IMG/VR virus record: IMGVR_UViG_3300037427_004270
Source: a virus
Strand: one strand, 5' to 3'
Length of the DNA stretch: 64,000 nucleotides
Below are positions 10,566 through 60,610 of the stretch, in pieces. The translations under genes were made by a program, and so were the position numbers. Position 1 is the first letter of the stretch. Each line of letters starts with the position of its first letter. The notes under the pieces are model-generated. The model ran no database searches, was not told where the DNA came from, and was given only the letters and a program-made list of their open reading frames with translations.

Positions 10566-10796
10566 TTAATTGGCTCTAGAATCTTCTATGCTAATAATAC
10601 TTAGATACCTTATTATATCAAAAGGCCCCTCTAGTGTCAATACAATATTGTATTCACTTAAACTATACTCATTTTCGAGCTCTTTGCTGTATTCAAATGC
10701 ATCACTTGTGTTTTCAAAGATCTTTGAATGTACGACAGAAAAGGGTTCCTTCTGCACAACGACGACTGATGATGTTTTTTCATCAGACCACCTCAT
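10566..10796 (-). CDS. hypothetical protein
   Basis: 76-aa ORF filling the gap between recA and lon, in the operon direction. Confidence 0.55.
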   Translation of the reverse strand: MRWSDEKTSSVVVVQKEPFSVVHSKIFENTSDAFEYSKELENEYSLSEYNIVLTLEGPFDIIRYLSIISIEDSRAN

Positions 10797-37329: not shown

Positions 37330-38592
37330 CTATCCCATAAGAATAACTAATGGAACCTTCTGGTGAATTCTATTTGCATTATCAACAAGATCTGCATCAC
37401 CTTCCATCAACTTGGCGTATGTTAGTTCGTCAAGAACAGTCTTGAGTTCATCTCTCAAGGTTGTTTGTTCTTCTCTTGCCTGAGTCGCTAACTGCTCTCC
37501 ATTGAGGGTTACTGAATCTCCCGGAATTGGAAGTGTTGCAAACTTGCTTCTTATGAGGCCCAAAGTCTCTTTACATAATGATAGAGCGAACCTTCTTATC
37601 CATTGCTTGCCGATAGCGTTTATATTATCATAAGGCAAGTTGCCAAAAGGAATTGTGTTTATATTGTTAATTCCGGCGACGCCAATAGATCTATCGGAGT
37701 CCTCTTGCCAAGAATCTGAAGGGATGGTAAACTCAAACCATATCTTATTATAGATGTTTGCTTCCGGAATAGGGAACAATCTTATCTTGTTGTTTCTTAA
37801 CTCGTAGGAGTAATGGCTGGTTCTTGTGTATAGACTGTCTTCATACGCCATTGCTTGTAGTTTATTTTGCCAAGGTGGTATAACCTCGTATGTAGAATCG
37901 TCTGCATATTGCCCATAAGTTGACATATTGCCAACCACGCCGAGGCCGCCATAGTAGCCATAAAAGCGCCACATGGTTTTTGGAGTCTTGTAAAAGACTT
38001 TCTTTACAAGTATCTTGTTCTTATTTGTTCCGGTTAAAGAGCCGCTAAAAGCTGGCATTGCGGAAACAATAGTTTGTAAATCATAGTCTTGTTTGCCTGT
38101 CTTAACATCTATTGAAGCGGAGTATGTAGTTTGGTTTCCGCCGACGCCAGCATCTTCGGAGATGCCATCTGCAACACGCCTTGCATAACTAAAATCAAAG
38201 GAAGGGTATTTTAACGAAACGTGCGAGCCGCTAAGGGACGAAGAGAGTTGACCGGACATTATATTGCCTTTGTGGTCAAAAGCTCCTGTGGTGTTCCCCA
38301 GGACGTCAGAGAGTATGTTTTTACTTTGATGTATGTTAACAAGGTAACTGTACTCTAAAACAGCCTCTTCGTAAGCCGCATATACTGTGTCTTCTTTTAT
38401 TTCTAAGTCGAGGACGTCTCCCCCAAGTTTTTTATAAACATAGTTAACTTGGGCAGAAGCTCCGGATAAAAACTCAGCGTTCCCTGAATATACGCCATAT
38501 GGCAAAGCAGCGTCAACGTTACCGATTGTTCCTGTGGCTGGCAGGGTTGATGCGTTAGTGGTGCTTTTTGGGTTTAAATTTGGTAAAGACAT
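37330..38592 (-). CDS. neck / head-tail adaptor protein (gp13-like)
   Basis: ATG at 38592 after SD GGAGG. KKLGGDVLDLEI, YEEAVLEYS, KQWIRRFALSLCKETLG.IRSKF...PG..VTLNG. Confidence 0.85.
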   Translation of the reverse strand: MSLPNLNPKSTTNASTLPATGTIGNVDAALPYGVYSGNAEFLSGASAQVNYVYKKLGGDVLDLEIKEDTVYAAYEEAVLEYSYLVNIHQSKNILSDVLGNTTGAFDHKGNIMSGQLSSSLSGSHVSLKYPSFDFSYARRVADGISEDAGVGGNQTTYSASIDVKTGKQDYDLQTIVSAMPAFSGSLTGTNKNKILVKKVFYKTPKTMWRFYGYYGGLGVVGNMSTYGQYADDSTYEVIPPWQNKLQAMAYEDSLYTRTSHYSYELRNNKIRLFPIPEANIYNKIWFEFTIPSDSWQEDSDRSIGVAGINNINTIPFGNLPYDNINAIGKQWIRRFALSLCKETLGLIRSKFATLPIPGDSVTLNGEQLATQAREEQTTLRDELKTVLDELTYAKLMEGDADLVDNANRIHQKVPLVILMG

Positions 38593-38706: not shown

Positions 38707-40395
38707 TTAGCCCTGCATATCAGAGATAATAACCAAGCCGTACATGTCAGGACGTACCATTTTCTTAGCGTAACGAGTCATTACGCCTTTTCTTGGTACG
38801 AAGTCTTCAGGACCAAAAATGGTCGGTGTGACTTGCAATGGAACGTAAGGAGCATAAACATATCCACTTTCGAGGAAGCTGCTACCTTTACGGCCAACTA
38901 ATACAACGTTACGTGGGAAGTATGGGTCAACATAAACTTCCAACTTACCGCTCAAACTACCGACGTTAACTGCACCAGTGGTACCTTTGTCGTCGTCATG
39001 AGTAACCTTAGCTTTGAAGCCAGCGGTGAATTCAAGCAAGTTAGCTGCTTCTGGGGATACAACGATGAAGTTGGCTCCGCCGCGCAACGTTTTGCGGTGA
39101 ATCTGTGCTGAAACGTCATTGATGGTTTCGAGAAGAGTCTCGTACCATTCGCTAACAGTACCAGTGAAGTCTGCACCGAGCAAGGATTCGTTCGCGCTAG
39201 TGCTGATTTGCAAACCAGTTTCGCGGTTCAAGAACTTACCTGGGCGACGTGACCAGTAATAGGTTGATGCGGTTGCACCGTTGATCAAGTCATTCAAGAT
39301 TTCCTGATCGAGTTCAAGAGCAATGTGCTCGGAAAGAACGTTTGTTAATTCAACTTCAGCGTCTAAGTTGTGATAAGCGTTCAAGTCTTGTCCTAATTCA
39401 GGAGTCCACTTTGCTTTCAACTTCTTAGTAACTGCAGTAACAGCAATGCTATCAACGTTGATGTTGATCTCAGGGATGTTACCATCGTTCTCTAAGCCCC
39501 ATTCAGCTGCACCAACAACAGAACCGATAGCACGAGGGCCAGCGTTGAAGTTGTCAACCAAAGGATAGCTCAAAGTACCAGCAATGTTTGCTGCACCGAT
39601 GTTTGCGCTCATACCAGAGAACATGATGTCAAGGTTGTTGCCACTAAGCGTAGTCAAACGACGAACTTGGTTAGCACCAGACAAATGACCTGCAGTAGTA
39701 GGCGTAAACACGATTTGAGTCAAGTTTTCTAAGTTAATTTCATCTCTAAAGGATGTGATAGCGATTCTCAACTGCTGACACTTAGTAGTGCTAGCTGCAA
39801 CCAAGTCAGGGTCATGACGAATAGCTTTCAATGAAACTTCGTTCATGCTGCCTGGAGCAACAGAAGCAGACAACTGAGTACCCGTTCTGATTGCGTTCAA
39901 AGACTGCGAACCAGTAGGTGAACTGTAAGAGTTGTTCAAGTTGTAGAAACCACCAGATGCTTCAGTAAGAGCAGCATTGGCAAGACCACCAGTAATTTGC
40001 TGGCCGAGGGTTCCGCCGCCATAAACTGATTTATCAGCAACACCACCACCACGAGTCTTGTCTAACTTGAAATCCAAGAAGAAGATAAGACCAGATGGAA
40101 GGCTCATAGGCTGAACACTTACCAGTTCATTTGCGATTAAGTTACCGAATACACGACGAACGATAGGAAATGCAACGGATGCAAAACCTTCAACATCGGC
40201 ACCAGCCATGGATGAAGCTTCACGGAGAAGTTCTTTTGCTTGGTTTTCGAGCAAGCGGCTCATATAATTTTTTGATTGTGAGGAAGTAAGACCTTCGAGA
40301 AGACCAGTATTTTCCCACTTATTCAGTAATGCAGCGCCTTCACCAGAGAGGTCACGCTCTACAATACCTTCAGTTAATTTTTCAATAACAGACAT
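38707..40395 (-). CDS. major capsid protein (T4 gp23-like)
   Basis: LVSVQPMSLPSGLIFFLDF, KKLKAKWTPELGQDL.AYH.LDAEVEL, RGGANFIV, GYVYAPYVPL, F.PRKGVMTRYA. Confidence 0.97.
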   Translation of the reverse strand: MSVIEKLTEGIVERDLSGEGAALLNKWENTGLLEGLTSSQSKNYMSRLLENQAKELLREASSMAGADVEGFASVAFPIVRRVFGNLIANELVSVQPMSLPSGLIFFLDFKLDKTRGGGVADKSVYGGGTLGQQITGGLANAALTEASGGFYNLNNSYSSPTGSQSLNAIRTGTQLSASVAPGSMNEVSLKAIRHDPDLVAASTTKCQQLRIAITSFRDEINLENLTQIVFTPTTAGHLSGANQVRRLTTLSGNNLDIMFSGMSANIGAANIAGTLSYPLVDNFNAGPRAIGSVVGAAEWGLENDGNIPEININVDSIAVTAVTKKLKAKWTPELGQDLNAYHNLDAEVELTNVLSEHIALELDQEILNDLINGATASTYYWSRRPGKFLNRETGLQISTSANESLLGADFTGTVSEWYETLLETINDVSAQIHRKTLRGGANFIVVSPEAANLLEFTAGFKAKVTHDDDKGTTGAVNVGSLSGKLEVYVDPYFPRNVVLVGRKGSSFLESGYVYAPYVPLQVTPTIFGPEDFVPRKGVMTRYAKKMVRPDMYGLVIISDMQG

Positions 40396-41545: not shown

Positions 41546-41576
41546 ATAAAAAAAGCCCGGCACATTGGCCGGGCTT
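41546..41576 (-). terminator. intrinsic terminator after the giant fibre gene
   Basis: AAGCCCGGC-CAATGT-GCCGGGCTT followed by TTTTT. Confidence 0.85.
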
Positions 41577-41609: not shown

Positions 41610-44600
41610 TTATAAGTCTGATGCAAATGGGGATGGATACCATTCACCATTCTCACAGAAGTACCATTTATTGACATTTCCAAATGTTTGTTGCGTAATC
41701 GCATCTGCACTTGCCCAGCTTGAGCCGGAGACAATATAGATCATCGAACCGTTGTATGCACCTGGAGCTGCTGCCATTGTGTCCAAAACATTAACATCAG
41801 AAGCGTTGTCCTGACGGAAGTGTGTAAGACTCAAAAGACCAGTAACCGTAGTAACATCAGTTCTAGCATTACCAAGAGCTGAGTCACCCTGGACAGTCAA
41901 TGTGCTTATCGTTGAGCCACTTGCATAAATGTGTGATGCTGACAAAGGAGCTGAAGTAAAACTTACATTTCCTGTTGCGCCACCCAAAGATGCACTTGTT
42001 GTGAGGCCGAACTGAAAGCGGTCTGCTGACTCGTCCCAGATAAACAATGCGTCAACTGCTGTGCCTCTCTTCATGACAAGGCCAGTATCGTTGACGTTGG
42101 TCGCGCCATTGTCTGTATCACCACTACCACTGTTCAGCATAATCAAGTTATCGTAGAACGTTGTATTGGATGATGAGACATAAGTAACAGAGCCCTGTAC
42201 AGTCAAGTTTCCACCAACAGTCAAGCCAGTGTTCAAAGACAAGGAGTCATCTGAAGCATTGTGCGTGATAGTTGTTGGGGAACCAGCACCGAAGCTAAGA
42301 ACTGCGCCGTCACTTAACAATTTAAGGTCGTCACCAATAACAGCGTCTAATGCAACAGACAAACCGCCGTCGGTCTGCAAAGAGCCGTCAGTTGTTGAAG
42401 TTGCGTTAGTTGTATCATCAGTCTTTAATACGCCAGAGAAAGTACCAGTAGTACCTGCAACTGTTGTAAACGTACCTGCCGCTGCAGAAGCTGCACCGAT
42501 AACAGTGCCGTCAATCGCACCAGAGTCAATGTCAACGTTAGTTGAATTGTAGTTGGCATGATCAACGTTTGAGCCCAACGTTCCAAGATTGGAAGTCGTT
42601 GCAGTCAAGGTTGTGACAGTTGCCGCTGCAGCACTTGCTGCACCGATGGTAGTACCGTCGATTGCGCCACCGTTGATGTCAACAGTAGTCAAAGTAGACG
42701 TGCCAGTTGCAGTGATCGCATCAATGTAACCGTGGTCAATATGAGCTTCGGCCCACTGCTTTGCAGATGTACCCAAGTCGCTTGTGCTATCCAAAATAGG
42801 AATCAAGTCACTATCAAACTGACCAGTTACAGTAACGCTGTCTGTGGTAGCGTTACCTAAGTCAACGTCACCAGTTGCAGACAATGTTGTTGCAGTCAAA
42901 GCTTGAACAGCAGTTGTACCAGCGGAGACACTTAGGCCACCTTTGGTCACTGCCAAAGCATTGTTTGCAGTCAACGTGCTCTCAACGTGCATCGTGCCGC
43001 CGACTGACGCATTGCCAGAACCAGAGACAGTGCCCATAACAGTTAAGTTATTACCCAGGCTTGTTGCACCAGCAATTTGCAGTGTGCTAGAACCAGAGAT
43101 GGTTGTAAACTTTGCAGTTGTTGCAGAGTTTGCACCGATAGCAGTACCGTCGATAGCACCACCGTTGATGTCAACAGTAGTCAAAGTAGACGTGCCAGTT
43201 GCAGTGATCGCATCAATGTAACCGTGGTCAATATGAGCTTCGGCCCACTGCTTTGCAGTTGTACCTAAGTCTCTCGCACTGTCAGTTGATGGAATCAAAT
43301 CACTATCAAATTGTCCTGTTGCGGTGATGGTGTCCGTGGTTGCGTTACCTAAGTCAACGTCACCAGTTGCAGACAAGGTTGTTACAGTTGCTGCTGCTGC
43401 AGAGTTTGCACCAATAACAGCTCCATCAATAGCACCGGAGTCAATGTTGACGTTAGTCATTGCTTCATCAGAGAAGTTAACAGCACCAGCCTGCTCGTAA
43501 GCACCGAGCTTAGTAACAGTCAAAGTATTATTAACTTGATCAAAAGTAATACCACTATCGTAGTAAAGGTTTGCAGATGAAGCTGCAGAGGCAGAAACCA
43601 ATGCGAACGTCAATGTATCACCCGCCTCAACGCCGTCAGTTTGAGCAACACTCGCACCTACGCCTGTCAAGTTGGAGCCGTCACCATGAAAGGTTTTGGC
43701 ATGCATTGCGGAAGCAGACAGTGGAGCTGAGTCAAAAGCTAAGTTTCCAGTCTGAGTTCCTAACGAGCCCGACTTTAATGTTGCAATTTGGAAACGGTCT
43801 GCTGACTCGTCCCAGAACATTGCTGCATCAGTTGCCGCGCCGCGCTTCATGATGAGGCCAATATCATTGATGTTGGTCGCACCATTATCTGCATCACTAC
43901 TGCCACTGTTCAAGACAATCAAGCTGTCATTAAGAACAGTGTTGGAAGAAGACACATAAGTTACAGAGCCTTGCACAGTTAAGCTTCCGCCAACAGTCAA
44001 GCCAGTGTTCAAAGACAAGGAGTCATCTGAAGCATTGTGCGTGATAGTTGTTGGGGAACCAGTACCGAAACTAAGAACTGCACCGTCACTTAACAACTTG
44101 AGGTCGTCACCAATAACAGCGTCTAGCGCAACAGACAAACCACCGTCGGTCTGCAAAGAGCCGTCAGTTGTTGAAGTTGCATTAGTTGTGTCGTCAGTCT
44201 TCAAGATACCAGAGAAAGTACCTGTAGTACCTGCAACTGTTGTAAACGTACCTGCTGCTGCACTTGCTGCACCGATGATAGTACCGTCGATAGCGCCAGA
44301 GTCAATGTCAACGTTAGTTGAATTGTAGTTAGCGTGATCAACGTTTGAGCCCAACGTTCCAAGATTGGAAGTCGTTGCAGTCAAGGTTGTGACAGTTGCC
44401 GCTGCTGCAGAAGCTGCACCGATGGTAGTACCGTCGATAGCACCACCGTTGATGTCAACAGTAGTCAACGTGGACGTGCCAGTTGCTGTGATGTCATCAA
44501 TGTAACCATGATCAACATGAGCTTCTGCCCATTGCTTGGCAGATGTACCCAAGTCTCTTGCACTGTCGGTTGATGGGATCAAGTCGCTATCAAACTGACC

Positions 44601-47600
44601 AGTCACAGTAACTGTGTCTGTGGTAGCATTACCCAAGTCAACGTCACCAGTAGCAGACAACGTTGTTGCAGTCAAAGCTTGTACAGCAGTTGTGCCAGCA
44701 GAAACCGTTAAGCCTCCCTTGGTCACTGCCAAAGCGTTGTTTGCAGTCAATGTGCTTTCAACATGCATTGTGCCACCAACTGATGCATTGCCAGAACCAG
44801 AAACAGTTCCCTTGACAGTTAGGTTGTTACCTAAGCTAGTTGCACCAGCGATGCCTAGAGTACCAGAACCAGAAAGGTTGGTACCAGTCAAAGCTGCGAA
44901 TGTACCTGCTGCTGCAGAGTTTGCACCGATGATAGTGCCGTCGATAGCGCCAGAGTCAATGTCAACGTTAGTTGAATTGTAGTTAGCGTGATCAACGTTT
45001 GAGCCCAACGTTCCAAGATTGGAAGTCGTTGCAGTCAAGGTTGTGACAGTAGCTGCAGCAGCACTTGCTGCACCGATGGTAGTACCGTCGATAGCACCGC
45101 CATTAATGTCAACAGTAGTCAACGTGGACGTGCCAGTTGCTGTGATGTCATCAATGTAACCATGATCAACATGAGCTTCAGCAAACTGCAAAGCAGATGT
45201 ACCCAAGTCTCTTGCACTGTCGGTTGATGGAACAATGTCGCTGTCAAAGCGGCCTGTTGCAGTGATCGTATCAGAGGTAGCGTTACCTAAGTCAACGTCA
45301 CCAGTTGCAGACAAAGCTGCGACAGTAGTTGAACCAGCAGAGACAACCAAGTTGCCGAGAGTAACAGTCAAGTTACCTGCTTCAACCTCTACGTTGTCTT
45401 CAACAGTCATGGTTGATCCGAATGCTGCGCCACCTTGTACAGACAAAGTGCCAGAGCCGGACATGTTACCAGCAACATTAAGTGTGCCAGAGCCAGACAT
45501 GTTGCCTTCAACAGACAAGTTATTACCCAAGCTTGTTGCACCTGCAATTTGTAATGTGCTAGAGCCAGAGATGGTTGTAAACTTCGCAGTTGTTGCAGAG
45601 TTCGCACCGATAGCAGTACCGTCGATAGCACCAGAGTCAATGTTAACATTGGTCATAGCTTCGTCGGAAAAGTTAACAGCACCAGCCTGCTCGTAAGCAC
45701 CAAGCTTAGTTGTAGTCAAGGTGTTTGTATTATTGTTGTACAGAAGTTGTCCGTCAGTCAAAATACTTGCACCAGAGCCTGCTGCGGTAGTACTACCAAG
45801 AAGGTAAACAGTCGCATCATTATCACCACCATCAGCGGTAGTAATTGTGTCTGCGGAGATACCTGTCAAGTTAGAACCGTCACCAGTAAAGAACTGTGCA
45901 TGTACATGGGAAGCAGACAGTGGAGCTGAGTCAAAGCTCAAGTTTCCAGTCTGAGTTCCTAACGAGCCCGACTTTAATGTTGCAATTTGGAAACGGTCTG
46001 CTGACTCGTCCCAGAACATTGCTGCATCAGTTGCTGCTCCACGCTTCATGATAAGACCAACATCGTTGATGTTAGTTGCGCCGTTATCTGAATCACTACT
46101 ACCACTGTTCAAGACAATCAAGCTGTCATTGAGTACAGTGTTAGAAGAAGAAACATAAGTCACAGAACCTTGTACGGTTAAGCTTCCACCAACAGTCAAA
46201 CCAGTGTTCAGAGATAATGAATCATCTGAAGCGTTGTGTGTAATAGTTGTTGGAGAACCAGTACCGAAACTAAGAACTGCACCGTCACTTAACAACTTGA
46301 GGTCATTCCCGAGAACTGCATCTTTAACAACAGATAGGCCACCATCGGTCTGCAAAGAACCGTCGGTAGTAGTAGTTGCTTCAGTTGTGTCATCAGTCTT
46401 TAAGACGCCAGAGTAAGTACCTGTCGTACCCGCAACTGTTGTAAACGTACCTGCCGCTGCAGAGGCTGCACCGATAACAGTGCCGTCAATCGCACCAGAG
46501 TCAATGTCAACGTTAGTTGAATTGTAGTTGGCATGATCAACGTTTGAGCCCAACGTTCCAAGATTGGAAGTCGTTGCAGTCAAGGTTGTGACAGTTGCCG
46601 CTGCTGCAGAAGCTGCACCGATAACAGTGCCGTCAATCGCACCAGAGTCAATGTCAACGTTAGTTGAATTGTAGTTGGCATGATCAACGTTTGAACCCAA
46701 CGTTCCAAGGTTGGAAGTCGTTGCAGTCAATGTTGTGACAGTTGCCGCTGCAGCACTTGCTGCACCGATGGTAGTACCATCAATCGCGCCGCCATTAATG
46801 TCAACAGTGGTCAACGTGGACGTGCCAGTTGCAGTGATTGCATCAATGTAACCATGATCAACGTGAGCTTCGGCCCACTGCTTTGCAGATGTACCCAAGT
46901 CGCTTGTGCTATCTAAAATAGGAATCAAGTCACTATCAAACTGACCAGTTACAGTAACGCTGTCTGTGGTAGCATTACCTAAGTCAACATCGCCCGTAGC
47001 AGACAAAGCTGCGACAGTAGTTGAACCAGCAGAGACAACCAAGTTGCCGAGAGTAACTGTTAAGTTACCTGCTTCAACTTCTACATTATCTTCAACAGTC
47101 AGGGTTGAACCCAAAGCTGCAGCACCTTGTACAGACAAAGTACCAGAACCAGACATGTTGCCAGCAATATTCATGTTGCCAGAACCAGAGATAGCCCCTT
47201 CGACTGACAAGTTGTTACCCAAGCTTGTTGCACCTGCAATTTGCAATGTGCTAGAGCCAGAGATGGTTGTAAACTTTGCAGTTGTTGCAGAGTTTGCACC
47301 GATGGCAGTACCATCAATCGCGCCGCCATTGATGTCAACAGTAGTCAACGTGGATGTACCAGTTGCAGTGATTGCATCAATATAGCCATGATCAATGTGA
47401 GCTTCGGCCCACTGCTTTGCAGTTGTACCCAAGTCTCTTGCACTGTCAGTTGACGGAATCAAGTCACTATCGAACTGGCCAGTTACAGTAACTGTATCAG
47501 AAGTAGCATTACCCAAGTCAACGTCACCAGTTGCAGACAAAGCTGCGACAGTGGTTGAGCCAGCAGAGACGACCAAGTTACCGAGAGTAACAGTCAAGTT

Positions 47601-50507
47601 ACCCGCTTCAACTTCTACATTATCTTCAACAGTTAAGGTAGAACCCAAAGCTGCGCCGCCTTGTACAGACAAGGTGCCTGAACCAGACATGTTACCAGCT
47701 ACGTTAAGAGTTCCTGATCCGGAAATATTTCCTTCAACAGAAAGGTTGTTACCCAAGCTTGTTGCACCTGCAATCTGCAATGTACTAGAGCCAGAGATGG
47801 TTGTAAACTTTGCAGTTGTTGCAGAGTTCGCACCGATGGCGGTACCATCAATAGCGCCGGAGTCAATGTTGACGTTGGTCATTGCTTCATCAGAGAAGTC
47901 AACCGCGCCAGCTTGCTCATAAGCACCAAGCTTAGTTGTAGTCAAGGTATTCGTATTGTTGTTATATACGAGCTGCCCGTCAGTCAAGATACTTGCACCA
48001 GCGCCTGCTGCAGTGGTACTACCAAGAAGGTAAACAGTCGCATCGTTATCGCCACCGTCAGCGGTAGTAATTGTGTCTGCGGAAATACCTGTCAAGCTAG
48101 AACCGTCGCCATGGAATGTCTGAGCATGCATTTGAGAAGCAGACAATGGAGCTGAGTCAAAAGCTAAGTTTCCAGTCTGAGTTCCTAACGAGCCCGACTT
48201 TAATGTTGCAATTTGGAAACGGTCTGCTGACTCGTCCCAGAACATTGCTGCATCAGTTGCCGCGCCGCGCTTCATGATGAGGCCAATATCATTGATGTTG
48301 GTCGCACCATTATCTGCGTCACTACTGCCACTATTCAAGACAATCAAGCTGTCATTAAGAACAGTGTTAGAAGAAGACACATAAGTTACAGAACCTTGTA
48401 CGGTCAAGCTTCCGCCAACAGTCAAGCCAGTGTTCAGAGACAAAGAGTCATCTGAAGCATTATGCGTGATAGTTGTTGGTGAACCTGTACCGAAGCTAAG
48501 AACTGCGCCGTCACTTAACAACTTGAGGTCGTCACCGATAACAGCATCTAATGCAACAGATAAACCACCGTCGGTCTGCAAAGAGCCGTCAGTTGTTGAG
48601 GTTGCGTTAGTTGTGTCATCAGTCTTCAAGATGCCAGAGAAAGTACCAGTAGTACCTGCAACAGTTGTGAATGTACCTGCTGCTGCACTTGCTGCACCAA
48701 TGGTAGTACCATCAATCGCACCAGAGTCAATGTCAACGTTAGTTGAATTGTAGTTAGCGTGATCAACGTTTGAACCCAACGTTCCAAGATTGGAAGTCGT
48801 TGCAGTCAAGGTTGTGACAGTTGCCGCTGCAGCACTTGCTGCACCGATGGTAGTACCGTCGATAGCACCGCCATTAATGTCAACAGTGGTCAGCGTGGAC
48901 GTGCCAGTTGCTGTGATGTCATCAATGTAACCATGATCAACATGAGCTTCAGCAAACTGCAAAGCAGATGTACCCAAGTCTCTTGCACTATCAGTTGATG
49001 GAACAATGTCGCTGTCAAAGCGGCCTGTTGCAGTGATCGTATCAGAGGTAGCGTTACCTAAGTCAACGTCACCAGTTGCAGACAATGTTGTTGCAGTCAA
49101 AGCTTGAACAGCAGTTGTACCAGCGGAGACAGTCAAGCCACCTTTGGTAACAGCCATAGCATTGTTCGCAGTCAACGTGCTCTCAACGTGCATCGTGCCG
49201 CCGACTGACGCATTGCCAGAACCAGAGACAGTGCCCATAACAGTTAAGTTACTACCCAAGCTTGTTGCACCAGCAATTTGCAGTGTGCTAGAGCCAGAGA
49301 TGGTTGTAAACTTTGCAGTTGTTGCAGAGTTTGCACCGATAGCAGTACCATCAATTGCACCACCGTTGATGTCAACAGTAGTCAATGTGGACGTGCCAGT
49401 TGCAGTGATTGCATCAATGTAACCGTGATCAACATGAGCTTCGGCCCACTGCTTTGCAGATGTACCTAAGTCTCTTGCACTATCAGTTGATGGCACCAAG
49501 TCACTATCAAATTGGCCTGTTGCCGTGATAGTGTCTGTGGTAGCATTACCCAAGTCAACGTCACCAGTTGCAGACAATGTTGTCACAGTTGCCGCAGCAG
49601 GAGTTGTCCCACCAAGGACTGCATCAACAGTACCACCGTTAATATCGGCAGTAGTTGCAACCAAGCTAGCTGCAGTAGTTACACCAGCAGCACTAACGCT
49701 AAGCTTATCAGTACCGTCTGTTTGCTCAACATTAAACAATTGAGCTGTTTGGCTACCAACGCCTTTAACATTCAAAGTGATCTCGTCAGTAGTGTCACCG
49801 GTGATTGTGGCACCAGCAGCAACGACCAGTTGATCATTTGCAGTCAAAGTTGTGAATGTACCAGCAGCAGGAGTTGCTGCACCAACAGTTGTACCATCAA
49901 TTGCGCCGCCGTTGATGTCAACAGTAGTCAAGGTAGACGTGCCAGTCGCAGTGATGTTATCAATGTGACCAGTGTCAATATGAGCTTCGGCAAACTGTAA
50001 AGCAGATGTACCTAAGTCTCTTGCACTATCGGTTGATGGAACAATGTCACTGTCAAAGCGACCTGTTGCGGTGATGGTGTCAGAGGTAGCATTACCTAAG
50101 TCAACATCGCCTGTAGCAGAAATATTCACAGTTCTAAACGTAGAACTTGCTGGGTTATATGAAATAGAACCCGAATGAATATACTGAGTTTCAGAGCCGC
50201 CAGAGGCAGAGACAAACGTTAAATGTAAATAATTGTCTGTGTCTGCTGGGCTAGTAGAAGCATTTTCCACTGAGCCTCCAACGCCTGATAAATTAGAACC
50301 GTTACCATAAAAATATGATGCCGATATCTTTCCGCTAGCAGACAATGATAAGCCTGTAGCGTTGTTGTCTCCGCCTGCAGCGGAAGACGAAATAGTTAAT
50401 GAGCCACTAAAATAGTGAGCACCATTATCCAGAGAACGAAATTTGGTGTCTTTCCAATTCGCTCCAGAGCCGGATATAACGGCTATACCTCTTGGATCAA
50501 TAGGCAT
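41610..50507 (-). CDS. 2965-aa modular repeat fibre/adhesin
   Basis: Uninterrupted ORF with SD GGAGGG; Thr/Ala/Gly/Ser/Asp-rich beta-fibre repeats; unique N- and C-terminal caps. Confidence 0.88.
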   Translation of the reverse strand: MPIDPRGIAVISGSGANWKDTKFRSLDNGAHYFSGSLTISSSAAGGDNNATGLSLSASGKISASYFYGNGSNLSGVGGSVENASTSPADTDNYLHLTFVSASGGSETQYIHSGSISYNPASSTFRTVNISATGDVDLGNATSDTITATGRFDSDIVPSTDSARDLGTSALQFAEAHIDTGHIDNITATGTSTLTTVDINGGAIDGTTVGAATPAAGTFTTLTANDQLVVAAGATITGDTTDEITLNVKGVGSQTAQLFNVEQTDGTDKLSVSAAGVTTAASLVATTADINGGTVDAVLGGTTPAAATVTTLSATGDVDLGNATTDTITATGQFDSDLVPSTDSARDLGTSAKQWAEAHVDHGYIDAITATGTSTLTTVDINGGAIDGTAIGANSATTAKFTTISGSSTLQIAGATSLGSNLTVMGTVSGSGNASVGGTMHVESTLTANNAMAVTKGGLTVSAGTTAVQALTATTLSATGDVDLGNATSDTITATGRFDSDIVPSTDSARDLGTSALQFAEAHVDHGYIDDITATGTSTLTTVDINGGAIDGTTIGAASAAAATVTTLTATTSNLGTLGSNVDHANYNSTNVDIDSGAIDGTTIGAASAAAGTFTTVAGTTGTFSGILKTDDTTNATSTTDGSLQTDGGLSVALDAVIGDDLKLLSDGAVLSFGTGSPTTITHNASDDSLSLNTGLTVGGSLTVQGSVTYVSSSNTVLNDSLIVLNSGSSDADNGATNINDIGLIMKRGAATDAAMFWDESADRFQIATLKSGSLGTQTGNLAFDSAPLSASQMHAQTFHGDGSSLTGISADTITTADGGDNDATVYLLGSTTAAGAGASILTDGQLVYNNNTNTLTTTKLGAYEQAGAVDFSDEAMTNVNIDSGAIDGTAIGANSATTAKFTTISGSSTLQIAGATSLGNNLSVEGNISGSGTLNVAGNMSGSGTLSVQGGAALGSTLTVEDNVEVEAGNLTVTLGNLVVSAGSTTVAALSATGDVDLGNATSDTVTVTGQFDSDLIPSTDSARDLGTTAKQWAEAHIDHGYIDAITATGTSTLTTVDINGGAIDGTAIGANSATTAKFTTISGSSTLQIAGATSLGNNLSVEGAISGSGNMNIAGNMSGSGTLSVQGAAALGSTLTVEDNVEVEAGNLTVTLGNLVVSAGSTTVAALSATGDVDLGNATTDSVTVTGQFDSDLIPILDSTSDLGTSAKQWAEAHVDHGYIDAITATGTSTLTTVDINGGAIDGTTIGAASAAAATVTTLTATTSNLGTLGSNVDHANYNSTNVDIDSGAIDGTVIGAASAAAATVTTLTATTSNLGTLGSNVDHANYNSTNVDIDSGAIDGTVIGAASAAAGTFTTVAGTTGTYSGVLKTDDTTEATTTTDGSLQTDGGLSVVKDAVLGNDLKLLSDGAVLSFGTGSPTTITHNASDDSLSLNTGLTVGGSLTVQGSVTYVSSSNTVLNDSLIVLNSGSSDSDNGATNINDVGLIMKRGAATDAAMFWDESADRFQIATLKSGSLGTQTGNLSFDSAPLSASHVHAQFFTGDGSNLTGISADTITTADGGDNDATVYLLGSTTAAGSGASILTDGQLLYNNNTNTLTTTKLGAYEQAGAVNFSDEAMTNVNIDSGAIDGTAIGANSATTAKFTTISGSSTLQIAGATSLGNNLSVEGNMSGSGTLNVAGNMSGSGTLSVQGGAAFGSTMTVEDNVEVEAGNLTVTLGNLVVSAGSTTVAALSATGDVDLGNATSDTITATGRFDSDIVPSTDSARDLGTSALQFAEAHVDHGYIDDITATGTSTLTTVDINGGAIDGTTIGAASAAAATVTTLTATTSNLGTLGSNVDHANYNSTNVDIDSGAIDGTIIGANSAAAGTFAALTGTNLSGSGTLGIAGATSLGNNLTVKGTVSGSGNASVGGTMHVESTLTANNALAVTKGGLTVSAGTTAVQALTATTLSATGDVDLGNATTDTVTVTGQFDSDLIPSTDSARDLGTSAKQWAEAHVDHGYIDDITATGTSTLTTVDINGGAIDGTTIGAASAAAATVTTLTATTSNLGTLGSNVDHANYNSTNVDIDSGAIDGTIIGAASAAAGTFTTVAGTTGTFSGILKTDDTTNATSTTDGSLQTDGGLSVALDAVIGDDLKLLSDGAVLSFGTGSPTTITHNASDDSLSLNTGLTVGGSLTVQGSVTYVSSSNTVLNDSLIVLNSGSSDADNGATNINDIGLIMKRGAATDAAMFWDESADRFQIATLKSGSLGTQTGNLAFDSAPLSASAMHAKTFHGDGSNLTGVGASVAQTDGVEAGDTLTFALVSASAASSANLYYDSGITFDQVNNTLTVTKLGAYEQAGAVNFSDEAMTNVNIDSGAIDGAVIGANSAAAATVTTLSATGDVDLGNATTDTITATGQFDSDLIPSTDSARDLGTTAKQWAEAHIDHGYIDAITATGTSTLTTVDINGGAIDGTAIGANSATTAKFTTISGSSTLQIAGATSLGNNLTVMGTVSGSGNASVGGTMHVESTLTANNALAVTKGGLSVSAGTTAVQALTATTLSATGDVDLGNATTDSVTVTGQFDSDLIPILDSTSDLGTSAKQWAEAHIDHGYIDAITATGTSTLTTVDINGGAIDGTTIGAASAAAATVTTLTATTSNLGTLGSNVDHANYNSTNVDIDSGAIDGTVIGAASAAAGTFTTVAGTTGTFSGVLKTDDTTNATSTTDGSLQTDGGLSVALDAVIGDDLKLLSDGAVLSFGAGSPTTITHNASDDSLSLNTGLTVGGNLTVQGSVTYVSSSNTTFYDNLIMLNSGSGDTDNGATNVNDTGLVMKRGTAVDALFIWDESADRFQFGLTTSASLGGATGNVSFTSAPLSASHIYASGSTISTLTVQGDSALGNARTDVTTVTGLLSLTHFRQDNASDVNVLDTMAAAPGAYNGSMIYIVSGSSWASADAITQQTFGNVNKWYFCENGEWYPSPFASDL
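42000..50125. repeat. mosaic of near-identical direct repeats inside the giant gene
   Basis: By manual count: SATGDVDLGNAT module x9, KTDDTT...WDESADRFQ module x4, SNVDHANYNSTN x6, ATTAKFTTISGSS x5, TKLGAYEQAGAV x3. Confidence 0.9.
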
Positions 50508-50559
50508 ATTTTTTCCCTCCTTCTTCGTCGAATATCACGAAGAAATAAATTAAAAGTTT
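50508..50559 (-). promoter_or_regulatory. RBS-abutting hairpin, copy 2 (putative translational operator)
   Basis: AAACTTTTAATTTAT-TTCTTCGT-GATATTCG-ACGAAGAA-GGAGGG-AAAAAAT-ATG. Confidence 0.65.
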
Positions 50560-50577
50560 ACTAATGTTTCCCATCTA

Positions 50578-51015
50578 TTAACTTAGATGAAAGAACATGT
50601 CAGGTACCCACGCACTATTGCGCGAAAAATACCATTTGTGGCCTTGCGAGAAAGCCTGAGCTGCGTCATTGCTGACTGCGACAGAACCTCCATTGGCAAT
50701 TGCACCTTTCGTAAGGCCAGTTGAATTTAGATATATAACGTGTCCATTGTAATCTTCTGGCGCTGCAGCCAGAGTATTTAAAATACCAATATCATTTTCA
50801 GAACCTGAAGCATATACTGGAATTCTAAAGACGCCATGAACCTTCGTCACATCGTTAACGTTGTTTGTCTTTCTACCTAACATCGTACTACCAGAGATGG
50901 CCAATGCTTTATTGGACCCTCCCGCAGAAATGATAGCCGAACCATCGTCCAAAAACCTATGGACATTGGTCGGTGATGAACCGGTAGTGACTTGCAACCC
51001 TCTTCTTCCTACCAT
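50578..51015 (-). CDS. 145-aa minimal member of the fibre family
   Basis: Paralog of the N-terminal part of the 370-aa protein (identical GLTKGAIANGGSVAVSNDAAQ); ends with the shared KWYFSRNSAW domain. Confidence 0.85.
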   Translation of the reverse strand: MVGRRGLQVTTGSSPTNVHRFLDDGSAIISAGGSNKALAISGSTMLGRKTNNVNDVTKVHGVFRIPVYASGSENDIGILNTLAAAPEDYNGHVIYLNSTGLTKGAIANGGSVAVSNDAAQAFSQGHKWYFSRNSAWVPDMFFHLS

Positions 51016-51064
51016 ATTATTTTCCCTCCTTCTTTGTCAAATATCACAAAGAAATTAAAAGTTT
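51016..51064 (-). promoter_or_regulatory. RBS-abutting hairpin, copy 1 (putative translational operator)
   Basis: AAACTTTTAAT-TTCTTTGT-GATATTTG-ACAAAGAA-GGAGGG-AAAATAAT-ATG; compensatory T-A versus C-G pair relative to copy 2. Confidence 0.65.
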
Positions 51065-51307
51065 CTTTTTTTACGAATGAGGCGTATATTAAAGGTGAGT
51101 TTCCGCAACAAGTATATAAAATTGGCAACTCTTACCTCCCGAAAAAGGTTTCTTAATAAAACGCCCTTCTTCACAAGCATCCCTTCTCAAACGTGGGGCT
51201 TGATATTAGTATTTAGTGAGAAAAGTGTGGTTTATTGCCTGTTTGCTTCAAGTTCTCTGAAAAAAGTTCCTGCACGTTTTTTATCAAATATTTTATGCAG
51301 ATCCAAT

Positions 51308-51331
51308 AAAAAACCCGGCGCGGGGCCGGGT
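51308..51331 (-). terminator. intrinsic terminator after the four-paralog cassette
   Basis: ACCCGGC-CCCGC-GCCGGGT followed by TTTTT. Confidence 0.85.
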
Positions 51332-51359
51332 CTTGAAAGTATGTTGTGCGAGCGTGTTA

Positions 51360-52442
51360 TTAGCTTACATCTTTTGTGAAAAACTCAAAGCCATCAATTA
51401 GCGCATCGTGACACAAATAGTCGTCATCATGGGTTATAGCATGAGCCGTATAATAGCCACAGTCTTGAGATTTCAAGGTTGAGTTTGAACTATCCCATTG
51501 TCTATAGTAAGAATCAGTAGTCGCTATTGAAATGGTTGTCTGCTTTGTCCATGTTTCGTTACTGAGAGTTTCTCCAATAGGTGCGGTATAGATCTCAACC
51601 TTATCGGCACTAGCTTGTGGTGTCACATCCATCCGAACATGATACCATGTGTTGAACGAGCCTGAAAATATAGTCTCATGAAGACTGTTGGTACCCGAAC
51701 TAATGCCGTGAGAAATATCATTTGTTTTATGAGCGTGGAATTTCAAGCGAGGAACCCTTGCACCGACTTTGCCAGCTTCACTGGTTCCGCCCTGAGCGCC
51801 GTCGCTGTCGTCTCTCAAGGTTGAGAGCGTCAAGCAATATCCCGTCATTCTTGGGTTGTAATCGCCACCAGAGCCATAGAAAGCATCTACAGCGTCTTCG
51901 GTAGCGTCATTAAAATAAGACGCACTTAGAGAGCCTGTTCCTGAACTTACATAGTCTCCCTGCTGGGCGGTGCCTGGGCCGATGCCCTTGACGAACAGGC
52001 CAATTTCTGAGCCTTGATTTCTCTCGGAGTTGGCGACTATTGAGGAGTTGTCGTTGCCCAGTCTCAAGAAAGCTCGAATACTGTAGGCAATTGTAGTACC
52101 TTCCGCAGGAGTTGCGTCAACTGGAAAGTCGCTTCCTGAGTCTGAGCCCGTTGTTATAAACGCCGCCATAATGCATGCGTTGTGATAGCTATTGTTGGAA
52201 TGAATGCTGGCCTGGCCATACATATATCCAGTGCAATAATCTCCCGCAGAAGCTGGTGCTGTGCCGGACAAGAAGGAGTGTGGGACGATAGAGCCAAAAG
52301 CTGCTTCGCCACCGCTGGTAGCTGCCCATGGGCCACCATTGCCGTAGGCCAAGAGGGACATGAAACGTTCCCCCCCTTCGAACTCGCCGGAATTGCCGCC
52401 GTACATGCCGGCATATCTAAAGTTTGAACGTGAAATTCCCAT
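51360..52442 (-). CDS. lectin/jelly-roll-like protein, paralog A2
   Basis: 360 aa; starts MGISRSNFRY, contains FNTWYHVRMDVTP...KVEIYTAP, ends HDALIDGFEFFTK. Confidence 0.85.
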   Translation of the reverse strand: MGISRSNFRYAGMYGGNSGEFEGGERFMSLLAYGNGGPWAATSGGEAAFGSIVPHSFLSGTAPASAGDYCTGYMYGQASIHSNNSYHNACIMAAFITTGSDSGSDFPVDATPAEGTTIAYSIRAFLRLGNDNSSIVANSERNQGSEIGLFVKGIGPGTAQQGDYVSSGTGSLSASYFNDATEDAVDAFYGSGGDYNPRMTGYCLTLSTLRDDSDGAQGGTSEAGKVGARVPRLKFHAHKTNDISHGISSGTNSLHETIFSGSFNTWYHVRMDVTPQASADKVEIYTAPIGETLSNETWTKQTTISIATTDSYYRQWDSSNSTLKSQDCGYYTAHAITHDDDYLCHDALIDGFEFFTKDVS

Positions 52443-52457
52443 TTTATTTTTCTCCTA

Positions 52458-53558
52458 TTAGCTTGATATATTTTTTGAATACACAGTTAGTGCATCTAAG
52501 TATGCGTCGTGGTTTCTGGACCGGGTGCTAAGGGTTGAGCCATTTTGATCTCTCCACGCCTGCACACAATAACCCAAACCCCTGTGGTTTTGGGCATGCT
52601 GACGAGTGACGTAATGACAAGTTCCAGCAAAACGATATTGAGTTGCTCTTTTTGTCCATGTTTCCGAACCTATCGTGTCGGTTGCGGGTGCTGTGTAAAT
52701 TTCAATTTTGTCTGTTCCTGGTAAGGGCGTAATGTCCATCCTTATGCGATACCACGCATTGAATGCGTATGAGCCTTGGCACTTGTGAACTCTTGGTCGT
52801 TGAAACGTGTTCCCAGCGGCGGCTTCGTTCGCATGAGGGCCAGTACTAATGAAAAGAAGTCTTACCACGCCAACATTCCCCCTGTTGGTATCTTTAACGC
52901 TTGAGCCATCACCATCGGAGTCAATATCGTCGTTGCCCCAAGAGTAATGCTTCATACTAGAAAGCCAGAGAGTGTACCCGTTTATTAAGGTGCCGTAAGT
53001 ATCCGTCTTGGAGTACACTGCATATCCATAATCATCACCATCGGCATCGGTGGTGTATCTAGCTGTGGTGGATGGCGTTCTAGCTCCAAAGAACAGACCC
53101 ACTGCAGTGCCGCTTGACGTATATTGACTCACTGATGCTGTGTAGAGACAGCCCAATCTGACTGTGGCTCTCATAGAGACAGCAGTTGCTTGGCTGCGCT
53201 TTCCTGTTGAGTTTGCAAAGCTTGCTGCTGCGCTCCAAGCTGAACCACTGTTTGGGTCTAGTCTTGGCCCCAAGGATCTAGTTCCCAAGAAACCCATGCC
53301 ATACCAACCTCTATTGTAGTTGTTCACTGAGTAATTGTATTGGCTGAAGATCCACCCTCTTGCATAATCTCCGCAAGTGGTTATTGCGCCAGATAACGTG
53401 GAATGGGGAACTGACATTCCCTCTGCAGCATATCCGCCGTTAGTACCACTTTCGCTGCCATTGCCGCGAGCCATGTTGTGGGCAGCCATTCTCACGTTGC
53501 CGTCGGTGGCGTCGTTGAGGGTCGTATACCCTAGAAAATTAAAATCCTGTTTTGCCAT
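52458..53558 (-). CDS. lectin/jelly-roll-like protein, paralog B2
   Basis: 366 aa; starts MAKQDFNFLG, contains DIDSDGDG and WYRIRMDITP...KIEIYTAP. Confidence 0.85.
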   Translation of the reverse strand: MAKQDFNFLGYTTLNDATDGNVRMAAHNMARGNGSESGTNGGYAAEGMSVPHSTLSGAITTCGDYARGWIFSQYNYSVNNYNRGWYGMGFLGTRSLGPRLDPNSGSAWSAAASFANSTGKRSQATAVSMRATVRLGCLYTASVSQYTSSGTAVGLFFGARTPSTTARYTTDADGDDYGYAVYSKTDTYGTLINGYTLWLSSMKHYSWGNDDIDSDGDGSSVKDTNRGNVGVVRLLFISTGPHANEAAAGNTFQRPRVHKCQGSYAFNAWYRIRMDITPLPGTDKIEIYTAPATDTIGSETWTKRATQYRFAGTCHYVTRQHAQNHRGLGYCVQAWRDQNGSTLSTRSRNHDAYLDALTVYSKNISS

Positions 53559-53579
53559 CTCTTGTTCCTCTCTTTGTTA

Positions 53580-54668
53580 TTAAGTCAAATCTTTCGTAAA
53601 AAACTCAAAACCATCTATTAATGCATCGTGAGCCAAATAATCATCATCGTGAGTTTTACAGTGAGCCGCGAAAAAGCCACAGTCTTGTTGTTTGGAAGTA
53701 GAATCTGTTGAATCCCAGCTTCTGTAATATTCGTCTGTGGCGTATATACGCACTGTCTCTCGCTTTGTCCATGTCTCGCTACCCAGGGCGTTTGCAATAG
53801 GGGCCGTATAAATTTCTACCTTGTCATGCCCCGATATTGGTGTTACGTCCATTCGAACATGATACCAGGTATTAAAAGAACCTGAAAAGATTTCAACATG
53901 CTTGCTGTTAACGCCTGGTAAGACGCTGTGGTTGATATTATTCGTTCGGTGGGCGTGGAACTTCAGGCGTGGAATTCTTGCACCTTTTACGCCAGCTTCA
54001 CTGGTTCCGCCAGTTGTTCCGTCGCTGTCGTCTCTCAAGGTTGACAAGGAGAGATAATACCCAGACATTCTTGGGTTGTAACTGCCGCCAGACGCATAGA
54101 AAGGATCGGTGGCATCTTCGTCAGCGTCGTGATAATAAGACGCACTTAGAGAGCCTGTTGGTGAGGCTGTATAGTCATTCTGTTGGTTTGTTCCTGGGCC
54201 GATGCCCTTGACGAAGATACCGATTTCTGAGCCTTGATTTCTCTCGTGGTTGGCGTTTATTGAGGAGTTGTCGTTGCCCAGTCTCAAGAAAGCTCGAATA
54301 CTGTAGGCAGTTCTGGTCCCTTCATTTGGAACTGTGTCCACTGGAAAGTCGCTTCCTGAGTCTGAGCCCGTTGTTACGAATGCTGCCACGAGGTGTGCCC
54401 TATGGTAGCTATTATTCGAAGGGTGACTGGCTTGTCCGTACATATAACCAAGGCAAAAGTCCCCCGCAGAGGCTGGTGCGGTGCCAGACAAGAAGGAATG
54501 TGGAACGACAGAGCCAAAAGCTGCTTCGCCGCCGCCCTCGTTGTTGTTGGCCCAACCAGCGCCTTGGTGTTGGCTTGCCAGTGCTGCCCATCGCTGAGCT
54601 GCATCGGTCGTGCCCGTACTGCCTATCCATGAGCCTGCGTATCTAAAATTTGAACGTGAAATTGCCAT
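53580..54668 (-). CDS. lectin/jelly-roll-like protein, paralog A1
   Basis: 362 aa; starts MAISRSNFRY; long stretches identical to A2. Confidence 0.85.
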   Translation of the reverse strand: MAISRSNFRYAGSWIGSTGTTDAAQRWAALASQHQGAGWANNNEGGGEAAFGSVVPHSFLSGTAPASAGDFCLGYMYGQASHPSNNSYHRAHLVAAFVTTGSDSGSDFPVDTVPNEGTRTAYSIRAFLRLGNDNSSINANHERNQGSEIGIFVKGIGPGTNQQNDYTASPTGSLSASYYHDADEDATDPFYASGGSYNPRMSGYYLSLSTLRDDSDGTTGGTSEAGVKGARIPRLKFHAHRTNNINHSVLPGVNSKHVEIFSGSFNTWYHVRMDVTPISGHDKVEIYTAPIANALGSETWTKRETVRIYATDEYYRSWDSTDSTSKQQDCGFFAAHCKTHDDDYLAHDALIDGFEFFTKDLT

Positions 54669-54683
54669 GTTACTTTTCTCCTA

Positions 54684-55757
54684 TTATACTATCTTTGAAT
54701 ATACCACCAAGCCATCAATGAAGGCGTCGTGGTTCTTATCTACTGCCGTTGCATTGGTGTCTCGCCAAGCAGAAACACAATATCCTATACCTTTGCGGTC
54801 AGCATTGACCCTGGGTAAATAGTGGCTGGTTCCCGCGAAACGATACTGGGTTGCAACTTTCGTCCAGGTTTCCGAGCCTACCGTATCGGTTGCTGGTGCT
54901 GTATATATTTCAATCTTGTCTGTTCCCGGAAATGGAGTAATATCCATTCTTATTCTATACCATTTGTTGTACTGGTATGTTCCTTGACACTTGTGAAATC
55001 TCGACCTGGCTGCGCCAGCACTGCTGCCGCCGTTGGTAGCATACTGTTGTGAGCCAAACAGGAGTCTCACTGTTTGAGCTCCTCTATTGGAATCTGAAAC
55101 ACTCGTACCGTCACCATCGGAGTCAATATCGCTGTTTCCCCAAGAGTAATGTTTCAGACTAGAGAGCATAAGAGTGTATCCTTGAAATTGGGTGCCATAG
55201 GCTGTAGTCTTATTGATAACCGTTCCAGCATAATCATCGCCATCGGAGTCATCTGTGTATTGAGTTGTCTGGGATGGCATGGTCGCATTGGTAAAGACGC
55301 CAATCGACGTTCCAAATGATGCCGAGTCTGCTGATCCGGTGTTGTCTGCTCCCAATCTGACCGTTGCTCTTATAGAGACAGCGGTGGCCGTTGTGCGTTT
55401 TCCTGATGAGTTTGCAAAGTTTGCTGATGCGCTCCAAGCAGAGCCGCTAGCTGGGTCCAGCCTTGCTCCCAATGATCTAGTTCCCAAGAAACCCATGCCA
55501 TACCAACCTACATTGTAGTTGTTTGTTGAGTATCTGTTGGCGCTGAAAAGCCATGCTCTTGCATAGTCTCCGCAAGTGGTTATTGAAGCACTGAGAGAGC
55601 TATGCAACTGAGACTGTCCTTCTGCTGCGTATCCGCCGTTGGTACTTCCGCCAGCGCCGTTGCCAGCTGCAATATCATATGCTATTTTTCTCACGCCGCC
55701 GTCGGTAGTGTCATTGCTTGTTCTATAACCTAGAAATCTAAAATCCTGTTTTGCCAT
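54684..55757 (-). CDS. lectin/jelly-roll-like protein, paralog B1
   Basis: 357 aa; starts MAKQDFRFLG; long stretches identical to B2. Confidence 0.85.
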   Translation of the reverse strand: MAKQDFRFLGYRTSNDTTDGGVRKIAYDIAAGNGAGGSTNGGYAAEGQSQLHSSLSASITTCGDYARAWLFSANRYSTNNYNVGWYGMGFLGTRSLGARLDPASGSAWSASANFANSSGKRTTATAVSIRATVRLGADNTGSADSASFGTSIGVFTNATMPSQTTQYTDDSDGDDYAGTVINKTTAYGTQFQGYTLMLSSLKHYSWGNSDIDSDGDGTSVSDSNRGAQTVRLLFGSQQYATNGGSSAGAARSRFHKCQGTYQYNKWYRIRMDITPFPGTDKIEIYTAPATDTVGSETWTKVATQYRFAGTSHYLPRVNADRKGIGYCVSAWRDTNATAVDKNHDAFIDGLVVYSKIV

Positions 55758-55782
55758 CTCTTGTTCCTCTCTTTAAAAGATT

Positions 55783-60400: not shown

Positions 60401-60610
60401 TTACCTCGCAAGTTCTTTCTTTTTCTTCTTCTGAGCATCTCTAATGGCTTTTTGCTTTGCTAATCTCTTAACATCAGAAGGTTTTTTATAAAATCTTTTT
60501 TGTTTCACTGCATCAACAATCTTTGACTTTTTTGTCTTTTTCATGAACCTCTTAATAAGAGCCTCTACGCTCTCTCCTTTACGCAGCTTTACACTAAAGT
60601 TTTGAGACAT
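60401..60610 (-). CDS. rpsU: ribosomal protein bS21 homolog
   Basis: 69 aa, basic: VKLRKGESVEALIKRFMKK...KRFYKKPSDVKR. Confidence 0.88.
   Translation of the reverse strand: MSQNFSVKLRKGESVEALIKRFMKKTKKSKIVDAVKQKRFYKKPSDVKRLAKQKAIRDAQKKKKKELAR

Follow-up and report, generated by a model that had tools for sequence, protein, structure and literature searches.

A hairpin flush against the Shine-Dalgarno sequence of two consecutive putative fibre genes in an uncultured marine T4-like phage

Two consecutive genes of an uncultured marine myovirus, encoding proteins of 145 and 2965 residues, start behind almost the same leader, in which a short hairpin directly abuts the Shine-Dalgarno (SD) sequence. 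Is this hairpin kept for its structure, and what could it do for the two genes, or is it a trace of leader copying? We addressed the question in a 64,000-nucleotide stretch of the T4-like phage (termed the window), all genes of which are on the minus strand. Besides a T4 gp23-like capsid protein, the window encodes a sheath, a tape measure, a gp21-type prohead protease, a ribonucleotide reductase and a DnaB-type helicase. The closest relatives of the capsid protein belong to an uncultured huge phage (39%) and to Flavobacterium phages (46%, over part of the protein), and judged from this protein the phage is placed among the T4-like phages, only distantly. No DNA-level relative of the window was found among 50,697 phage records, and neither the leader nor the 145-aa protein had a relative in DNA and protein searches of 50,697 phage records. 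GTDB genome scans returned no relatives and IMG/VR scans returned one contig only; the relatives used below are 12 loci from one JGI metagenome scan (marine).

A perfect extended sigma-70 promoter (TTGACA-17 nt-TG-TATAAT, 12/12) is located at 10612-10640 (-), before the gene of a 778-aa ATPase, and 29 of the 36 window genes are preceded by an SD-like motif, both of which suggest that the host makes ordinary use of sigma-70 and SD sequences. This promoter also argues for a canonical-promoter host rather than a member of the Bacteroidota, although the nearest cultured capsid relatives are Flavobacterium phages. The window further carries a tRNA-Ile gene (anticodon TAT) at 7724-7799 (-), and the motif ATAAATA is enriched (19 copies vs 8 expected), mostly outside intergenic sense positions.

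Comparison of the two proteins revealed 35% identity (E = 3e-15), which is confined to the last ~110 residues of the 2965-aa protein, whereas the N-termini can barely be aligned. The sequences mark them as old paralogs that share only the C-terminal module; the duplication must be old because the pair of a small and a giant gene is already present in two of the relatives (L001 and L002). Searches of Pfam, PHROGs and PDB gave no match for either protein, the term “fibre gene” being inferred for both, and neither contains a polymerase domain; the AlphaFold model of the 145-aa protein is poor (pLDDT 54). The two genes form a putative fibre operon bounded by two terminator-like sites, the only matches of a terminator scan. 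The 344-nt spacer upstream of the small gene contains two blocks that are conserved in L001 (2563-2916). The farther block, of ~47 nt, contains a CTGCA...TGCAG inverted repeat, and the nearer one, of 20 nt, contains TAAATA and resembles T4-type late promoters. Both blocks are candidate promoter or regulatory sites located >130 nt upstream of the first hairpin, which would in that case lie within a long 5' UTR; the two hairpins are probably inside a bicistronic RNA, unless this RNA is processed. The neighbouring region 51360-55774 (-) encodes four ~360-aa paralogs in the order A-B-A-B, with pairwise identical RBS/start segments, which indicates a recent tandem duplication beside the duplicated leaders.

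Table 1. Features of the window, and hairpins in the leaders of related loci.
Feature	Position	Strand	Description
Ribosomal protein bS21 gene	60401-60610	-	PF01165 (Pfam E = 3.8e-11, above cut-off)
Intrinsic-terminator-like site	51312-51327	-	Ends the upstream gene; 5' boundary of the two-gene unit
Candidate promoter region	51199-51305	-	Blocks conserved with L001 (about 51259-51305; 51199-51218)
AU-rich box, copy 1	51052-51064	-	AAACTTTTAATTT; its final 2 nt also open stem 1
Hairpin 1, leader of 145-aa gene	51030-51053	-	TTCTTTGT / loop GATATTTG / ACAAAGAA
SD, copy 1	51024-51029	-	GGAGGG; 8 nt to ATG
145-aa gene (P0001)	50578-51015	-	Conserved protein of marine metagenomes; ATG at 51015
AU-rich box, copy 2	50547-50559	-	AAACTTTTAATTT; 2 nt between box and stem 2
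Hairpin 2, leader of 2965-aa gene	50521-50544	-	TTCTTCGT / loop GATATTCG / ACGAAGAA
SD, copy 2	50515-50520	-	GGAGGG; 7 nt to ATG
Start-codon hairpin	50484-50508	-	7+3 bp, -6.5 kcal/mol; contains giant-gene start codon
2965-aa gene (P0002)	41610-50507	-	Repeat protein; ATG at 50507
Intrinsic-terminator-like site	41553-41576	-	9 bp, 7 GC, T-run; 3' boundary of the two-gene unit, behind the giant gene
T4 gp23-like capsid protein gene	38707-40395	-	
L001, small gene			Stem GTCCT/AGGAC (5 bp); loop TATTT, 5 nt; GA, then GGAGGG
L001, giant gene			Stem ATTCGGT/ACCGAAT (7 bp); loop CTTT; 2 nt (UU) before GGAGGG
L001, giant gene, 6-bp core			Stem TTCGGT/ACCGAA; 3 nt (UUU) before GGAGGG
L002, giant gene			Stem GTTCT/AGAAC; 4-nt loop; 0 nt to GGAGGG
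L008, L009, L012			Stem GTGTT/AACAC; 3-4-nt loop; 0 nt to GGAGGG
L011			Stem GTGTC/GACAC; 4-nt loop; 0 nt to GGAGGG

The two leaders (51016-51064 and 50508-50559, both on the minus strand) share one order of elements: an AU-rich box, an 8-bp stem with an 8-nt loop, GGAGGG, a spacer of 8 or 7 A/T-rich nucleotides and ATG. An earlier sequence-only reading had located the two hairpins, and its coordinates proved exact to the base; its description of the leader was also correct in its parts, except that the indel at the box-stem junction (a 2-nt overlap in leader 1 vs a 2-nt gap in leader 2) measures 4 nt and not 3. Both stems end 0 nt before GGAGGG, an unusually strong SD, and in leader 1 the extended SD AAGGAGG overlaps the final two stem pairs. 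Taken alone, hairpin 1 has a folding energy of -7.4 kcal/mol and hairpin 2, in which C-G replaces U-A at pair 6, of -8.9 kcal/mol; each hairpin is the centroid structure of its leader. The leaders are identical at 45 of 48 positions (94%), and this similarity begins at the box and stops sharply at ATG. In addition to two indels, the copies differ by three substitutions, all of which fall within the hairpin. Two of them (T to C at stem position 6 and A to G at its partner) convert U-A into C-G, and the third, T to C at loop position 7, may convert G.U into G-C at an inner pair.

A search with the 30-nt hairpin and SD pattern, allowing up to 3 mismatches, returned 2 matches in 64 kb, with 0 expected, and the two copies form direct repeats 509 bp apart that flank the small gene. 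The SD itself is also unusual, for GGAGGG is three-fold depleted in the window (6 copies vs 18 expected; every shuffle gave at least 6), and among its 4 minus-strand copies in the 64 kb it is used as an SD only at the two hairpin-led genes; it is the family SD in all relatives examined. Further downstream, the start codon of the giant gene is itself placed in a second hairpin, with a predicted unpaired probability of the AUG of 0.05. The first 29 nt of the giant gene are identical in the window, L001 and L003, whereas conserved codons further on show synonymous changes, and this pattern suggests RNA-level constraint and an attenuated initiation of the giant gene.

Whether the hairpin is selected as a structure was assessed with shuffles, control leaders and a simulation of substitutions, as the stems were too unlike in length, loop and sequence for an unbiased joint alignment. 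The folding energies of the whole leaders are unexceptional (z = -0.2 and -1.75), and with such weak z-scores the case rests on comparison and not on thermodynamics. In the simulation, three random substitutions in 49 nt gave one compensated pair and no broken pair with p of about 0.005. A second, independent pair of leaders behaves in the same way: the sole difference between the stems of L008 and L011 is a compensated U-A to C-G change (simulation p of about 0.002), and L009 differs from L011 by only one other change within 70 nt before ATG. In total, a hairpin no more than 3 nt from the SD (5-7 bp in the relatives) was found in 5 of 7 independent fibre leaders, compared to 3 of 27 other SD-bearing leaders of the window (Fisher p = 0.0035), and the combined shuffle test gave p = 3e-4 even with the two hairpin-less leaders entered as p = 1. 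The leader comparison covers only about 6 independent lineages. Because the relatives keep a hairpin at the same spot with quite different sequences, the hairpin structure itself is probably under selection. The earlier reading had noted the compensatory T-A to C-G change, which is indeed the sole stem difference, and had taken it as a sign of selection on structure; two independent compensated pairs, and hairpins of unrelated sequence at the same position in relatives, support this view.

Among the 27 control leaders, the only other strong zero-gap case was observed at 37332-37356 (-), where a hairpin (7 bp, two G.U, -6.9 kcal/mol) made by the 3' end of the upstream coding sequence lies 0 nt before the AGGAG of a 2280-aa gene (30478-37320).

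Further analysis of the relatives revealed how freely the hairpin changes. The small protein of L001 is 77% identical to that of the window, yet the orthologous leader has a completely different hairpin. Alignment of the window with L001 showed the lowest sequence conservation in the hairpin segment, in which pairing is retained, whereas the upstream spacer blocks are well conserved. Both leaders of L001 follow one plan (A-run, AAAC, TTAA, hairpin, GGAGGG and AT-rich spacer), but their stems differ. The loops are 3 to 8 nt long across all leaders and 3-5 nt in the relatives, where they share no common motif and TATA and TTAT occur in addition to the loops of L001. Two leaders lack the structure. 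The giant gene of L003 is about 95% identical to that of L001, yet its leader has no hairpin owing to a 16-nt indel, and no abutting stem was found in the leader of the L002 small gene; these two cases imply that the element is dispensable. The 16-nt segment, present in L001 and absent in L003, is an inverted copy of the immediately preceding bases, which reads as the signature of a template switch. As judged from these sequences, the element can arise or vanish through template-switch-like events.

In these two hairpin-less leaders (L003 270-307 and L002 3950-3985), the AT-rich flanks can pair into weak stems that leave GGAGG in a 5-nt loop, which may be chance. The leaders of four more distant relatives were excluded from the counts, since in them the N-terminal fibre module continues the frame of an upstream ORF of ~540 aa and the “leader” may be coding (L005 3900-4000, L007 3900-4000, L010 3900-4003 and L006 1590-1684). 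Their linker (peptide GLSGSCSQQ) is conserved at the nucleotide level and folds into GC-rich hairpins, one of which (GGCAGG/CCTGCC, loop GGAA) is directly adjacent to a GGAGGA/GAAGGA motif; the site could be an internal start or a fusion.

Taken together, we lean towards a hairpin that acts in cis at the 5' edge of the ribosome site, is under selection for its structure and tunes ribosome loading and/or mRNA stability, a reading to which we give an even chance. It is most likely a small and modest tuning element acting on its own mRNA, not a new regulatory system. The comparisons indicate that the stem sequence is free to change while pairing is kept, and no dedicated protein would be needed to read it. 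The end of the helix would border on the duplex of SD and anti-SD, where stacking could occur; as a 5' barrier, the hairpin could define the landing site of the 30S subunit sterically and set the efficiency of 30S loading. The recurrent zero-nucleotide gap between stem and SD suggests that this geometry matters, through stacking or through steric definition of the landing site. In addition, or instead, the hairpin might shield the mRNA against decay that depends on its 5' end. Endonuclease sites classically consist of an AU-rich box and, behind it, a stem that ends up as a protective hairpin at the 5' end of the product, and cleavage might take place in the single-stranded box just upstream of the stem; with the candidate promoter blocks as far upstream as they are, a 5'-terminal hairpin would require such processing. 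The sequence-only reading had also considered a processing site, a possible role that matches the anatomy of an AU-rich single-stranded box 5' of a stem. In either role the element would modulate expression without being essential. A simple insulator role, in which the hairpin exposes the SD, found no support: when the 5' arm was forced to be single-stranded in constraint folding, the predicted SD accessibility changed in only 2 of 7 leaders.

The close match between the window leaders is best read, from their sequences, as recent homogenisation. The genes are old, the leaders differ at only three aligned positions and the hairpin of L001 is different, so the module must have been homogenised within the lineage of this phage, long after the genes diverged. 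We propose that gene conversion or copying transferred the ~50-nt leader module between the two genes, and that a compensated change afterwards would have kept the stem intact.

The same history admits a neutral explanation, in which the leader has no function of its own and was copied recently between the genes by gene conversion or as a PeSL-like recombination cassette, the hairpins being by-products of inverted duplication or template switching in AT-rich leaders; this would also explain the symmetric change. Such a view is doubtful, but several points speak for it. The copies are only two, arranged as direct repeats around the small gene; orthologous leaders evolve fast, the L001 segment bears the mark of a template switch and L003 does without the hairpin. 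Tandem duplication with identical RBS segments is active next door, and PeSL cassettes mediate shuffling in T4-like phages (PMC4122927). Moreover, template-switch correction of quasi-palindromes can yield compensated changes without RNA selection, which counts against the cis-acting hairpin that we prefer. However, hairpins of unrelated sequence recur 0-3 nt from the same SD in five lineages, significantly in excess of controls and shuffles, a compensated change occurred twice independently, and the limits of the similarity coincide exactly with the functional module from box to ATG. Alternatively, the hairpin could be a translational operator, to which a phage or host protein binds to block (or aid) the 30S subunit and to co-regulate both genes. 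We consider this unlikely, even though direct SD adjacency is a typical operator geometry, as in T4 gp43 (PMC3014915), the stem, loop and box are nearly identical in the two window leaders, and an 8-nt loop offers a recognition surface. The idea is weakened mainly by L001, the two leaders of which differ in stem and loop (TATTT vs CTTT), and by the variable loops of the other relatives; one of the eight loop bases already differs between the window copies, and no candidate RNA-binding regulator was identified. The operators of T4 and RB69 gp43, by comparison, keep their loop sequence (PMC3014915). A shared protein-binding operator co-regulating both genes had been the inference of the sequence-only reading, and as a conserved trait it is not supported, given the differing L001 leaders, the variation in loop length and sequence, and the hairpin-less L003.

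Two further explanations concern the SD and the DNA. It is quite improbable that the strong core hairpin nucleates a weak extension, built of G.U pairs between the U-rich box and the SD as in a fourU- or ROSE-type RNA thermometer, and that translation depends on temperature, a helicase or a ribosomal factor. Such a switch would agree with the minimum-energy fold of leader 1, where CUUUU of the box pairs with GAGGG and all six SD bases are paired, with a 3-bp extension that covers GGA in L009 and L011 while GGG pairs with the start region, and with the low predicted SD accessibility (0.1-0.5) of most leaders. Yet the extension is worth only about 1.7 kcal/mol and is missing from the centroid structures, its register is shifted in leader 2 by the 4-nt indel, and no such extension exists in L001 or L002. 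Equally little probability attaches to a DNA-level element, either a palindromic site for a dimeric transcription factor or, together with the AU-rich box, a part of a phage-specific promoter. The arms are perfect inverted repeats, L002 has a perfect 14-bp palindrome and the upstream box is conserved in both window copies; but the half-sites differ within L001 and between lineages, so that one protein could not read them all, and a base contacted by a protein would not be expected to change symmetrically. As for a promoter, no sigma-70-type site is common to both copies, transcription starting a few bases past the box would begin inside stem 1, and the conserved candidate promoter blocks are >130 nt upstream.

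Several other readings of the module were rejected. It is not an intrinsic terminator, for the stems contain 2-3 GC pairs and give way to GGAGGG and an A-rich stretch without a U-run; the stem is too short for an RNase III site; and a sigma-70 promoter was discarded, with no promoter-like site present in both copies. An Rfam cmscan of 50300-51500 gave chance-level hits far below the gathering scores, none of which was on the hairpins.

The phage also encodes its own ribosomal protein bS21; its gene lies in the interval from the prohead protease gene to the fibre block, and the leaders follow about 9-10 kb downstream. bS21 genes are likewise present in two other lineages (L011 956-1153; L014 1501-1647), in the same late gene block as the homologous fibre genes and 1.4-3 kb upstream of them, at about 1.4 kb in L011 and about 3 kb in the IMG/VR contig of L007. 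On the ribosome, bS21 belongs to the 30S platform, next to the helix of SD and anti-SD, and a helix stacked on the SD duplex would emerge at this place. According to a published proposal, phage bS21 shifts initiation in favour of late phage mRNAs (PMC9723584). It is conceivable, but highly improbable, that the hairpin and GGAGGG leader is a recognition module for ribosomes remodelled by phage bS21, which would favour very long late mRNAs. If true, this would be the first concrete mRNA target for a viral bS21; the co-occurrence itself suggests, speculatively, that a viral ribosomal protein is connected with particular mRNA leaders.

Overall, selection on the structure is reasonably supported, an operator is not favoured, and the putative function would be modest. 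If the cis-acting reading holds, the leaders present a natural and evolutionarily maintained case of a synthetic-biology rule, a hairpin flush against a strong SD, in a setting that includes a reading frame of 9 kb, for which the loading of ribosomes and the survival of the message should be most important. The leader module would also be an example of concerted evolution between old paralogs.

Comparison with known systems places the element close to some and apart from others. The T4 gene 43 operator, the geometry of which the sequence-only reading had described in broadly correct terms, is an 18-base hairpin-loop together with a sequence that overlaps the RBS, likewise a leader hairpin adjoining and functionally joined with the RBS (PMC3014915); the 18 bases agree with the 8-nt loop given in that reading. 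It is autogenous and located in the leader of a polymerase gene, whereas the genes here are putative fibre genes. Its loop bases -UAAC-/-UAAA- are needed for binding and are kept between T4 and RB69 (PMC3014915); this motif is missing from the window loops GATATTTG and GATATTCG and from TATTT, CTTT, TATA and TTAT of the relatives, and, unlike the gp43 operator, the stems and loops vary between paralogous and orthologous leaders. By gene and loop sequence, the element is outside the gp43 operator class. In the PeSL cassettes of T4-like phages, an early sigma-70 promoter is joined to a stem-loop of the terminator type, and hyperplastic early regions contain many of them (PMC4122927). Similar to the present leaders, they are short regulatory units with a stem-loop, repeated around variable genes, and can act as points of recombination (PMC4122927); in contrast, the module described here has no shared promoter or U-run, is located in a late structural region and has two copies in 64 kb, and is not a PeSL cassette.

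The closest systems in working, by analogy, are the RBS-proximal 5' UTR hairpins and the small cis structures at T4 initiation regions. Stem-loops of the ompA type are RBS-proximal 5' UTR hairpins that stabilise the mRNA or expose the RBS. The RBS-proximal 23-nt hairpin of RiboJ similarly raises stability or exposes the RBS (PMC6206723), and RiboJ and synthetic 5' hairpin cassettes resemble the leaders in that a short stable helix of arbitrary sequence is placed in cis directly 5' of a single-stranded SD (PMC6206723). These hairpins act 5'-terminally, after transcription start or ribozyme cleavage, whereas those of the window are probably internal unless the RNA is processed, and here the SD is not made more accessible in silico. 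In T4, cis structures at initiation regions are inhibitory in e, soc, 49 and I-TevI and enhancing in 25 and 38 (PMC3014915). They are small structures that tune late genes without a protein (PMC3014915), as is proposed here, and the gp23-like capsid marks the window as a phage of the T4 kind. However, the inhibitory stems of T4 hold the SD and/or AUG and the enhancing ones are between the SD and AUG, while the stems described here lie entirely on the 5' side of the SD; the hairpin that holds the giant-gene start codon, by contrast, does resemble the inhibitory class of e and soc.
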